A stretch of 32,000 nt of DNA from Puniceicoccales bacterium (GCA_031283585.1 JAITBP010000007.1:30001-62000), one strand, 5' to 3'. Positions 1,328-4,925 are shown, counted from the first letter of the stretch. The notes: generated by a model not told the origin, from the sequence alone. Program-made: numbers and translations.

Positions 1328-3478
1328 TTAGTTTAAAGCGGCTTCAATATCATCAATGGTCCACTTAAGTTCTTGAATTCCATTCTCAACACGAGAACTG
1401 ACTGAATATAAAATAGTTTGGGAAATTTTTGCGTTTTTAATTTCTGTAAATTTATCATTAATGGTTTTCAAGACATTTTCTGCATGGGCTTTAATTTCTT
1501 TTAATTTTTCTTTATCTTCCTCTGAAGAGTTTCCTCTATAGGCTGAAATCGCTGTTGAAGCTGCCATACTTATATTTAGTGGGTTATCTTTGCTGTTCGC
1601 ATTAAGCAAGTTATCAAGATATGAATATGCGTTGTCGCCGTTAAGAATATCATTGTTGTTTTTTTCTATCTGCTTTTCTTCTGCTTCTTCTATTATCCTC
1701 AGCTCCTCTTCTTCCTTAGATGAAAGTTTATAATAATGTAATGCACTCTTCTCCTGTACAGACATTCCTTTTAGTATCTCATCATGTAATTTTTTCTCAC
1801 CACGGGAAAGATTATTTACATTGAACCTTGGATCAAACATCTTTTCCCTTAAAGATGCTTTAATATCATCTGTATTTATTCCAACCCCTTTTATATCTAT
1901 ACCATCTTTTATTACAGCTTCTTTTATTTCTACATTAGCCTTTATTTCTGGTTCAGCCTTTACACTAGCCGCATTTAGGATGGCATCAGCCTTTTCCTTG
2001 CCGATGATTCCGGCCGCCTTATCAAATATGGCCTTTTCTTCATCACTAAAGCCCTTTCCTTTGGCTCCATTACACAAATTTTTTACCTGTATTTCTATCT
2101 CTTTAGTCAAATCATCCTTGTTTATCTTTGCTTTTGCAGTGTTTTGCGTGACTGCAACTGTATCAACAGTCCTCATAAATTTATTTGTAACATTTCCAAT
2201 AGCATCTCCTATCCCACAAGAAGCTAAAGCCTTATCATAATCTATGGCATTAAACCTTCCTATTAATGTTTCTAATTTAGCACTAGCGTTTGTAGTAGAC
2301 CTCACTGTTTTCCCATCGACCATATAACAGCATGTATCAACAATAAATTTATCATAGTTCTGTCCTACCGAATCTGGAATAAAGCAAATATCACACTCTG
2401 TAGCTTTCTTTGTATCACCATCCATCATTGCTTTGACATAGTATCCAGTAACTTTATCACCATTTTCTAGAGTAACAATCCTTTCCTCCAAAGTTCCTTC
2501 TCCAAATTTGCCCCTATCTAAAACAAATTTTTGGATTTCATCACGGGATCTATTATCCATACTAACAAACTTAGGGAACTCATCATCACGTATAAATTTC
2601 GCCAATTCATCCTTCTTAGCCCCAAACATAGCTGCATTACCATTAAGCAAAATGTCATGGCATTCTGTCTTTATTAATTTCTCTATCTTTCCAATGGTCT
2701 CTTTTATTTGAGCAGTTGGATTTTCAATGGCACTTAACTCTTTATATGTATTTGATAGCTGCTCCGCAATTTTCATTTTATTTTCGGTGGTTTTGACAGT
2801 GTTGTAGGTACTGATTAGCTCTTCGGTCGACATTGGGGCGACAATTGCTCCTTTTATTTTAACAATATTATTGACTATCGTATAGTTTAGTGATATTTTC
2901 CCACCGCTATCCTTAGTATAGATTCCGGCTTCAAAGGCTTTTGATAGGTCATTATCATCATTCGAAAGGGTTTTATATATTTCTGATAAACTAATTTTTA
3001 TCGATGTTTTTTGTTCTTCGGTAGTATTATTATCCTTGTATTTTTTTATCAACTCATCTATATTTACATTATCTCCTATACCTTTATTAATACTAAAATT
3101 ACCTTCTCCGGTAGTGTACTTTTTTAGCACACTCTCGGCATCCTTACTTATTTTTGCTTTTTCATCCGCATCCATTTTAAGTAGTGTATCTGCCATTTCC
3201 TTCTTGGTTATTTGTTTGCAACTCATATCACTAAGTTGATATCTCACCCCCCAGTTTTTATTGATATTAATTTTCGAAGCGATATTTGCGAAAAATCCTT
3301 TGACCTTGCTGGTCTGGATGGCTTTTACCTTCACTTTTATACCGCTGTCTAATTCTAGTTCAGTGGCTTTTCCTTCTCCTTTATGGCTTCTTACTTCCTT
3401 ACCTATTTCTTTCAGCCGTGTGCTATAATCTTTATAATCTTGACCTTTGCTATAATCTTTATAGTTATAATCATTCAT
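1328..3478 (-). CDS. Hypothetical 716-aa K/E/N/D-rich soluble protein; candidate secreted cargo/effector, paralog of 3738-4925
   Basis: Long uninterrupted ORF with no hydrophobic segments and no enzymatic motif I recognise. Residues 18-82 align with residues 10-72 of the upstream 395-aa protein. Three degenerate internal repeats of about 33 aa are present. It lies downstream of a CesT-like chaperone gene. Confidence 0.8.
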   Translation of the reverse strand: MNDYNYKDYSKGQDYKDYSTRLKEIGKEVRSHKGEGKATELELDSGIKVKVKAIQTSKVKGFFANIASKININKNWGVRYQLSDMSCKQITKKEMADTLLKMDADEKAKISKDAESVLKKYTTGEGNFSINKGIGDNVNIDELIKKYKDNNTTEEQKTSIKISLSEIYKTLSNDDNDLSKAFEAGIYTKDSGGKISLNYTIVNNIVKIKGAIVAPMSTEELISTYNTVKTTENKMKIAEQLSNTYKELSAIENPTAQIKETIGKIEKLIKTECHDILLNGNAAMFGAKKDELAKFIRDDEFPKFVSMDNRSRDEIQKFVLDRGKFGEGTLEERIVTLENGDKVTGYYVKAMMDGDTKKATECDICFIPDSVGQNYDKFIVDTCCYMVDGKTVRSTTNASAKLETLIGRFNAIDYDKALASCGIGDAIGNVTNKFMRTVDTVAVTQNTAKAKINKDDLTKEIEIQVKNLCNGAKGKGFSDEEKAIFDKAAGIIGKEKADAILNAASVKAEPEIKANVEIKEAVIKDGIDIKGVGINTDDIKASLREKMFDPRFNVNNLSRGEKKLHDEILKGMSVQEKSALHYYKLSSKEEEELRIIEEAEEKQIEKNNNDILNGDNAYSYLDNLLNANSKDNPLNISMAASTAISAYRGNSSEEDKEKLKEIKAHAENVLKTINDKFTEIKNAKISQTILYSVSSRVENGIQELKWTIDDIEAALN

Positions 3479-3486
3479 GTTCGATA

Positions 3487-3514
3487 ATTTTATAATAATG
3501 CCTAGCTAAGTCAA
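3487..3514 (-). promoter_or_regulatory. Sigma70-like promoter candidate for the 716-aa gene (near-leaderless geometry)
   Basis: On the minus strand, TTGACT (3514-3509), a 16-nt spacer, then TAAAAT (3492-3487). Only 8 nt separate the -10 from the ATG at 3478, and there is no Shine-Dalgarno. The AT-rich background raises the chance of a fortuitous -10. Confidence 0.4.
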
Positions 3515-3737
3515 TCCAGTTTGATGGCTGCTTGTTAGTAATTTACTCCTATAGGATTGCGCCTGAAAAAATCTACCAGCGATGACCTATCACTAAAACC
3601 AATATCCTTTGGCCATTCAATTTAATTGCCAGTATCCTATATGATTTTGCACCGTCACATTCTAACCTTGTAATAGCTAGTACCCAGCAACAATCACAAA
3701 AATATGCCAGCTAATGACGACAGAGAAGTCATATGCA

Positions 3738-4925
3738 TTATAACATACTATTAGATTGCTGTTGCTGGCTTTGTTGTTTTATCGTATCGGCATATAATTC
3801 CATACTCTTAAATTCTAGATTTGTATCTGAAATGTGTTTTAGTATAGCTCCTCTTAGTTCCTGTGGCTGTTTTTCTAACTGCTCTTGTAACTGGTTTTCT
3901 CCAGTCTTAGCATTTTCTCTCGGTAGAAATACCCCATGCGAAGTTCCATCACTGTTCACAGCGGTTGAACTGAGTTTGTTGTTAGCTACTCCTATAGAAA
4001 AATTAATTCCCATCAATTCTACTTTTATCATTTTTATATCTGTACTCTTTTTGCCAGAATCATTAATAGCTTCATTAGCGATATTACTTACTTGAGTCAT
4101 TGTATCATCTAATTTCTTTATTATTTCTTTGTATTTCTCGTTCTGTTTGTCGGCAACCTCTTTGGGAATCTCCGTCATCTTCGTAGTCTCAGTACTAGAA
4201 AATTCTCCTCTATCCTTAAGATGCTTAAATGCGTTTTTTATTATATTGTTTCTATTAATTTCATCACATTCAATCATTGAACATTGTTCACCTACATTGG
4301 ATTTACCGTCCAGGTAAAGATCCTTACCACCAACATTAATGCTTACTATAAACCTCTTATCAATGCGATTTTTATCATCAGCCATGATAACCTTAAATTT
4401 TACCACACCATAATCAGCCACAACGTCCATATTGGCCACTGGATTACCATTCCTTTTATCTAGAGCTATTTCTATATAGGAACCTTGATTTTTAGAGCTC
4501 AAGAAACTTGTAACAAACGCCATGTTGAGTTGATTTAATTTGCCTTTTTCGTATTCAGTAAGACCATTATTCATACAATTATCTGTATTGTGTGCTTCAG
4601 TTAACGTATTTTCTATGGTAGTTTTATTTGCTTCACTTACTTCATTTTTGATAGAATTCAGTTTCGCCATTATTTCTTTACTTGTCATTGGAGCAGTGGA
4701 AGTGCCATCCAGTTGATATCTCACGCCCCAGTTTCTCTCGAGGCCAATTTTCGAAAGTGTGTTTGCTAAAAATCCTTTAATTTTGCTGGTCTGGACAGCC
4801 TTGATAGATATTGATGGGCCATCAGCCAAATTTAACTTGCCTATGGCTCCATCACCTCTTACAAAGGTTTTGCCAATATCTCTCAGCTGTTTGCTATAAT
4901 CTCCACCTCCTATTGGCGCACTCAT
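3738..4925 (-). CDS. Hypothetical 395-aa soluble protein; candidate secreted cargo/effector, paralog of 1328-3478
   Basis: The ATG is preceded by GGAGGA about 7 nt upstream and lies 39 nt downstream of the chaperone-like gene. The N-terminal module DYSKQLRDIGK...AVQTSKIKGFLAN...NWGVRYQL is shared with the 716-aa protein. The tail is Q-rich (QQSQQQQSNSML). No TM segments. Confidence 0.8.
   Translation of the reverse strand: MSAPIGGGDYSKQLRDIGKTFVRGDGAIGKLNLADGPSISIKAVQTSKIKGFLANTLSKIGLERNWGVRYQLDGTSTAPMTSKEIMAKLNSIKNEVSEANKTTIENTLTEAHNTDNCMNNGLTEYEKGKLNQLNMAFVTSFLSSKNQGSYIEIALDKRNGNPVANMDVVADYGVVKFKVIMADDKNRIDKRFIVSINVGGKDLYLDGKSNVGEQCSMIECDEINRNNIIKNAFKHLKDRGEFSSTETTKMTEIPKEVADKQNEKYKEIIKKLDDTMTQVSNIANEAINDSGKKSTDIKMIKVELMGINFSIGVANNKLSSTAVNSDGTSHGVFLPRENAKTGENQLQEQLEKQPQELRGAILKHISDTNLEFKSMELYADTIKQQSQQQQSNSML

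Follow-up and report, generated by a model that had tools for sequence, protein, structure and literature searches.

A candidate type III export leader shared by two otherwise dissimilar proteins next to a predicted CesT-family chaperone in a Puniceicoccales bacterium

The stretch of Puniceicoccales bacterium DNA analyzed here (GCA_031283585.1, JAITBP010000007.1:30001-62000; 32,000 nt, hereafter the window, with positions counted from its first nucleotide) carries on its minus strand two adjacent genes encoding proteins of 395 and 716 residues. Both proteins open with the same module of about 80 residues and are dissimilar thereafter, and the gene just upstream of the pair encodes a 143-residue protein of the CesT chaperone family. 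We lean, with slightly better than even confidence, to the view that the shared segment is a type III export leader of both proteins, i.e. a secretion signal together with a chaperone-binding domain, and that it is served by the upstream chaperone. This reading is the most likely one given where the module lies, what kind of chaperone is encoded next to it, that no other export signal is present and that relatives repeat the arrangement; from these we infer the binding, the secretion, an injectisome and a eukaryotic target.

Composition-corrected BLASTP aligns residues 17–99 of the 716-aa protein with residues 9–89 of the 395-aa protein, with 39 of 83 positions identical (47%), 64% positives and one 2-residue gap (E=4e-20). 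The Smith-Waterman score of one module against the other is 191, compared with a mean of 26 (sd 4.4) for shuffled sequences; the z value is 37.8, and the score was reached by none of 300 shuffles. Thus the similarity is not compositional, and an artefact of K/E-rich sequence is excluded. The initial annotation had placed the shared segment at nt 3233–3427 and 4710–4898, equivalent to residues 18–82 of the 716-aa protein and 10–72 of the 395-aa protein, and had counted 33 identities in 63 positions with one 2-residue gap; the mapping is exact on rechecking, and the recount agrees. The module matched no known domain in Pfam or PDB.

The relationship is visible in the DNA as well. The four identical runs reported in the initial annotation are exact and are found as the reverse complements of GTGAGATATCAACT, AAACTGGGG, AAAGGATTTTT and TCCAGACCAGCAA. 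Nucleotide identity across the module is 59%. The synonymous divergence (dS) is about 1.4 for the whole module and 0.72 for its core, KAIQ...RYQL, and the ratio of nonsynonymous to synonymous divergence (dN/dS) is 0.34 and 0.26, respectively, indicating purifying selection. Identical residues use the same codon in 21 of 38 cases, where 15.5 are expected from the codon usage of the two genes. The high dS and the codon counts indicate that the DNA runs reflect amino acid conservation plus codon preference after an old duplication, and they rule out recent gene conversion as the origin of the runs. The duplicated module is old and has been retained by selection; it is not a recent copy.

The match is sharply bounded. 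Residues 101–716 of the larger protein against residues 91–395 of the smaller one give a score of 55, the shuffle mean being 55.4 ± 8.5 (z=0), and the secondary segments found by BLASTP between the two proteins have E values of 3.9 or worse. The patchy similarity that had been noted past the module is therefore at chance level, and the three matches quoted for it are not collinear: they lie at positions 214, 318 and 374 of the 716-aa protein and, out of order, at positions 78, 234 and 187 of the 395-aa protein. In the 395-aa protein, the sequence APMTSKEIMAKL is part of the module's tail; its correct alignment partner in the 716-aa protein is KQITKKEMADTL, and its resemblance to APMSTEELISTY is marginal (z=2.5, reached by 25 of 1000 shuffles). 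The proposed architecture of a shared leader with variable C-termini thus stands insofar as one leader is found on two bodies without detectable similarity, and the residual likeness of the C-termini is due to chance.

A second, degenerate copy of the module within residues 100–240 of the 716-aa protein was considered and rejected; the hidden Markov model (HMM) domain score is −1.5, z is −0.4 against the protein's own module, and the APM... segment reaches only z=2.5. The same protein opens with an internal duplication, YKDYS-KGQD-YKDYS (nt 3425–3478, minus strand; DNA repeat AAAGATTATAGCA), and the DYS motif is the opening of the module in both proteins.

The domain layout of the 716-aa protein (Table 1) was obtained from all-against-all BLASTP with proteins of related contigs, described below, and from alignment. 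Its central domain, which is absent from the 395-aa protein, matches a 320-aa protein of contig L004 with 35% identity over 297 aa (E=2e-43) and a 405-aa protein of contig L002 with 25% identity over 310 aa (E=8e-14). These matches indicate that the 716-aa protein is the local form of a conserved protein consisting of the module and the central domain.

No match to either protein was found in Pfam, NCBIfam, PDB sequences, PADLOC, PHROGs or plasmids, and a phage, defence-system or plasmid origin was rejected for want of such matches. Hydropathy reveals no signal peptide or transmembrane segment in either protein (KD12 at most 0.36 in the first 40 residues, KD19 at most 1.05 overall). Sec export is therefore unlikely for both. 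The first 25 residues of both are polar, and the modules at residues 9–89 and 17–99 follow this polar start, which is the N-terminal layout of effectors. The GC content at third codon positions (GC3) is 0.29–0.30 in the two genes versus 0.45–0.54 in the neighbouring housekeeping genes; low GC3 is common for effector genes. The position of the module also matches that of the chaperone-binding domains in effectors of class I chaperones, at residues ~10–100 (PMC3280449).

Family profile and predicted fold place the 143-aa protein among the class I type III secretion chaperones. It matches Pfam PF05932 (CesT) with E=3.9e-12 and 46.8 bits, the cut-off being 22. The AlphaFold model, with a predicted local distance difference test score (pLDDT) of 76 and a predicted template modelling score (pTM) of 0.70, displays the alpha-beta3-alpha-beta2-alpha topology of the class I fold, with helices at residues 3–21, 67–78 and 110–142 and strands at residues 32–37, 40–45, 53–58, 86–91 and 96–101. 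The best 20 Foldseek matches of the model in PDB are all type III chaperones, namely SchA, ExsC, SycN/YscB, SicP, CesT, SycH, SrcA, VecA and SpcU, with template modelling (TM) scores of 0.53–0.72 and E down to 5e-7; several of the matched chaperones were solved with an effector N-terminus bound. The direct sequence match in PDB is weak, with SrcA (STM2138) at E=0.1. Chaperones of this family are acidic proteins of about 15 kDa; the present one has a mass of 16.5 kDa and an isoelectric point (pI) of 6.3, or 4.85 for residues 1–125, the overall value being due to the basic C-terminal tail.

The gene order on the minus strand is tmk, holB, chaperone, 395-aa gene, 716-aa gene and then rpsA (Table 1). 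The chaperone stop codon and the start of the 395-aa gene are 39 nt apart, and the chaperone likewise adjoins such genes in contigs L002, L003, L004 and L085. A gap of 259 nt separates the 395-aa gene from the next large gene, and rpsA comes after the 716-aa gene. From its ATG, the chaperone gene shares 23 nt with the 3′ end of holB (5374–5396), and the overlap is 44–50 nt in L002 (9884–9927) and L003 (2255–2304). The secretion-chaperone gene is thereby built into the conserved tmk-holB housekeeping operon, and the order tmk-holB-chaperone is also found in L002, L003 and L085.

Table 1. Positions in the window of the two module-bearing genes, their parts and the genes upstream of them
Feature	Position (nt)	Strand	Basis and remarks
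716-aa gene: leader, ~120-aa insert, conserved central domain, ~200-aa C-terminal extension	1328..3478	−	Open reading frame (ORF), BLASTP, alignment; GC3 0.29
Central domain of the 716-aa protein, residues 221-509	1952..2818	−	Common to module proteins of relatives
Leader module of the 716-aa protein, residues 17-99	3182..3430	−	BLASTP, shuffles, profile from relatives
395-aa gene: leader module and C-terminal body without detectable relative	3738..4925	−	ORF; GC3 0.30
Leader module of the 395-aa protein, residues 9-89	4659..4901	−	BLASTP 39/83 identical, E=4e-20, z=37.8
Predicted 143-aa class I type III secretion chaperone (CesT family)	4965..5396	−	Pfam, AlphaFold, Foldseek
holB	5374-6282	−	Pfam DNA_pol3_delta2, E=3.4e-27; overlaps tmk and the chaperone gene
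tmk	6257-6913	−	Pfam Thymidylate_kin, E=4e-49

How widely the module occurs had been left in the initial annotation to a database search. Direct searches return only the 395-aa protein: a profile of the two modules found nothing in a 5.8-billion-cluster database or in GTDB genomes, and among 1.84 billion representatives its hits were limited to the 395-aa protein itself and P0006, a spurious repeat protein. A search with the family alignment of seven sequences gave 8000 word candidates with none scoring, and neither the central domain nor the chaperone gave a match in metagenome scans. Carriers of the module in Puniceicoccales relatives were reached only via chaperone matches and exact look-ups. 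Three close relatives of the chaperone, 76–84% identical, are encoded in metagenome contigs, and the proteins of the relatives are deposited as hypothetical proteins of 'Puniceicoccales bacterium'.

The related Puniceicoccales contigs have the same layout, with one to three tandem genes carrying a very divergent module on different C-termini. In L002, a 65-kb contig that is also present as a metagenome-assembled genome (MAG) at NCBI, tmk-holB-chaperone precedes four genes whose products have 405, 119, 153 and 250 aa. All but the 153-aa product open with the divergent module, and, as in the window, likeness can be confined to the leader: the 405- and 119-aa proteins are 55% identical across the N-terminal 98 aa only. 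L003 contains the chaperone and module genes. In L004 the chaperone is followed by a module-bearing ORF, and the contig also encodes the 320-aa protein mentioned above.

Two of these contigs show further peculiarities. At nt 11680–12519 (plus strand) of L002 the module-only 119-aa ORF is followed, after 19 nt, by the module-less 153-aa ORF; they may be one gene split by a stop codon or frameshift, or the former may be a truncated leader-only gene. The sequence of L004 (nt 1–2226) closes on itself with a 33-nt overlap of end and start, its last 95 nt are an exact repeat of nt 1886–1980, and nt 1–187 are 90% identical to nt 1948–2131. Its holB is a 90-aa 3′ fragment only and is preceded by the end of an effector gene. 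Either a cassette of partial holB, chaperone and effector gene, module included, has been duplicated in tandem, or the contig is an assembly artefact of mixed strains.

A profile built from the modules of the relatives alone ranks the two window proteins as the top 2 of 369 six-frame ORFs of the window, with domain E values of 0.0011 (716-aa protein, the best) and 0.077. Four features stand out in the alignment of the seven modules: an alternating hydrophobic strand, the segment [TNS]S[KR][VI]xxF[FL], whose spacing is that of an amphipathic helix, the invariant motif G-[VI]-[KR]-Y, and LDGxKCxxIT as the tail. The hydrophobic strands are IKVKVKA, ISIKAV, VTVSV, VTISA, VNVSV and VTITT, for which the beta-strand motif of effector chaperone-binding domains, with its three spaced hydrophobic residues (psi-X2-4-psi-X1-2-psi), is too loose to be diagnostic. 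Module identity is 42–78% within a genome and 9–29% between genomes, compared with 76–84% for the chaperone between the same genomes. The within- and between-genome values indicate that members of one leader family, on different bodies, were duplicated, or kept alike, separately in each lineage.

A model can be proposed for the export of these proteins. The single class I chaperone encoded just upstream would serve both substrates. Acting presumably as a dimer, as its family does, it would hold the leader in an extended form, beta-strand / amphipathic-helix / beta-strand, and deliver the two proteins to the secretion machine. Different activities in a eukaryotic host would reside in the unrelated C-terminal bodies. 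New effectors may arise when the 5′ part of an effector gene is duplicated onto new bodies (terminal reassortment), independently in each of the related genomes.

Several observations weigh against the leader model. Family-profile scans found no type III machinery gene within the window; for Verrucomicrobia, type III systems of the non-flagellar kind have been recorded (PMC3459982). It is unusual for a secretion chaperone gene to lie inside a housekeeping operon and to overlap holB. Between genomes, the chaperone has changed far less than the module that it is supposed to bind, so the binding would have to rest on a few features such as the alternating hydrophobic residues, K[VI]xxFF and G[VI][KR]Y. 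A single-sequence AlphaFold run on the 395-aa protein was unusable (pLDDT 35) and gave no structural model of the module. The CCBD of class IB chaperone substrates, by which one chaperone recognizes several effectors, has been described as (LMIF)xxx(IV)xx(IV)xN within the first ~50 residues (~25–45) and has been used to enumerate the effectors in a genome (PMC3280449); a regular-expression search for the strict motif found it in 0 of 7 modules.

Two other explanations were considered. The module could be an ordinary folded domain for binding a target, a membrane or a partner, kept after tandem duplication while the rest of the proteins diverged or was replaced; the chaperone would then be irrelevant to its conservation, and the proteins might or might not be exported. 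Its regular predicted strand, amphipathic helix and strand and the G and Y invariant in seven sequences would suit such a domain, and tight co-evolution is not seen, the module diverging strongly between genomes and the chaperone not. However, the extreme N-terminal position and the adjacency of the chaperone in four independent contigs fit a leader better, there is no other export signal, the same segment sits repeatedly on unrelated bodies, and neither Pfam nor PDB offers a match. A plain folded domain is in our judgement unlikely. Slightly less probable still is that the 143-aa protein has a non-secretory chaperone-like fold, as a YbjN-type regulator or holdase expressed with tmk and holB, and that the two large proteins, as lineage-specific paralogs, stay in the cytoplasm and bind it, or another partner, through their N-termini, with no type III system involved. 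YbjN/AmyR and proteins of Synechococcus and Methanothermobacter do share the fold at lower Foldseek ranks (YbjN-family and other non-type-III proteins at ranks 21–22 and 43–49), the gene is embedded in the housekeeping operon and overlaps it in every relative, and an injectisome gene was not seen in the 32 kb. Against this, the CesT match is far over the Pfam cut-off, the best 20 structural matches are true type III chaperones, the YbjN matches have E values of 4e-3 or worse, and the adjoining genes, with their low GC3, fast divergence and expansion in tandem, are typical of effectors.

Polymorphic toxin systems have a conserved N-terminus and variable C-termini in tandem genes, and the two proteins resemble this general layout. 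They might thus be contact-dependent toxins, of a type VI, type VII or CDI-like system, that combine a common trafficking N-terminus with variable toxin domains at the C-terminus. This is very improbable: PAAR, Rhs, LXG, MIX, haemagglutinin-repeat and toxin domains were not found in either protein with Pfam and NCBIfam, no small immunity-like ORF follows either gene on the same strand, and the adjoining accessory protein belongs to a type III chaperone family rather than to a type VI adaptor family. The initial annotation had taken the pair for modular or polymorphic secreted cargo sharing one targeting or chaperone-binding domain. The shared domain agrees with the adjoining CesT-family chaperone, with a leader at residues ~10–100 and with the like arrangement in relatives; the polymorphic toxin part is unsupported.

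The host belongs to the Verrucomicrobiota, order Puniceicoccales. A MreB scan of species-representative genomes places Puniceicoccales MAGs nearest (81–84% identity), with other Opitutia at about 70%. A chlamydial origin, to which tmk-holB, MreB/MreC and CesT might point, is rejected on this placement and on the naming of the relatives' proteins as Puniceicoccales. The isolate names of the MAGs hint, tentatively, at a termite-gut habitat. Within nt 1300–10000 of the window, low-GC stretches (about 35% versus about 44% elsewhere) flank tmk-holB on both sides and hold only lineage-specific genes, and the genomic composition is kept by tmk, holB and, in part, the chaperone gene. On the other side of tmk, three tandem genes on the plus strand (7011–8734) encode paralogous small proteins of 208, 147 and 190 aa with a hydrophobic signal-like N-terminal segment, a Lys/Arg-rich C-terminal tail, no Pfam match and a GC3 of 0.31–0.37; homologs are encoded at the corresponding position of L002 (150 and 140 aa) and of L003 (194 aa), with BLASTP E values of 1e-4 to 1e-12. 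Next to them (8857–9981, plus strand; GC3 0.29) is the gene of a 374-aa protein without a family match, which has three tandem acidic repeats TAATEE[SP]EVKEATEE[SP]xSQEN near its C-terminus. Further along, nt 15367–17271 (minus strand) encode a 634-aa protein in which a lipid A acyltransferase domain is fused to a family 9 glycosyltransferase (heptosyltransferase-type) domain.

Next to nothing is known about the effectors of Verrucomicrobia that are uncultured and probably host-associated, and the prediction of effectors is hampered by the poor sequence conservation of secretion signals. With a recognizable leader linked to one chaperone, candidate effectors could easily be listed in such genomes, and there would be a compact natural example of new effectors made by re-use of an export leader. 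It is possible, though doubtful, that a host-associated lineage of Puniceicoccales has a type III effector cassette wired into its tmk-holB operon, with a lineage-specific export leader of ~80 residues repeatedly copied to new bodies; in that case the leader would be the first sequence-defined secretion and chaperone-binding tag for verrucomicrobial effectors, with which the effectors of these symbionts, themselves uncultured, could be listed. The principle is already established for proteobacterial pathogens; the gain lies in taxonomic reach and in a new orphan family, which the module and its carriers constitute, and not in mechanism.

The arrangement resembles the pairs YopE-SycE, SptP-SicP, Tir-CesT, HopA1-SchA and ExoT/ExoS-SpcS, in which, as here, the chaperone gene adjoins its substrates (here presumed ones) and the segment concerned lies at residues ~10–100. 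CesT, SrcA and SpcS each serve more than one substrate, and here likewise one chaperone is associated with two proteins. The structures of class I chaperones match the fold predicted for the chaperone, whereas the solved effector N-termini have no sequence similarity to the module; the module profile found no effector chain among the PDB chains at E up to 10, in a copy of PDB that may lack a SifA chain. The present chaperone gene, with the module as the putative ligand of its product, differs in its setting, a housekeeping operon of a Verrucomicrobiota (Puniceicoccales) host in which it overlaps holB, and not a pathogenicity island.

The Salmonella SPI-2 effectors reportedly share an N-terminal translocation domain with WEK(I/M)xxFF (Miao and Miller, 2000); they have different activities and a common N-terminal domain needed for translocation. 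The seven modules have [TNS]S[KR][VI]xxF[FL] without W-E, so the Salmonella motif as such is absent from them, and no sequence relationship to the SifA/SseJ-type N-termini emerged from the search of PDB chains given above. K[VI]xxFF, present in four of the modules, bears a loose resemblance to K(I/M)xxFF, a likeness of a short motif that is not evidence of homology. The CCBD differs in kind, being a short motif, whereas the present module is ~80 residues long and lineage-specific.

Terminal reassortment of type III effectors was reportedly described by Stavrinides, Ma and Guttman in 2006. One N-terminal region, for secretion and chaperone binding (here presumed), is found there, as here, on unrelated C-termini, through duplication and recombination of 5′ segments. 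The term is also used for type III effectors in later work (PMC3136466, PMC3071791). Its classical cases are dispersed effectors of plant pathogens, whereas in the Puniceicoccales the re-use takes the form of a tandem operon-like array and apparently recurs separately in each related genome.

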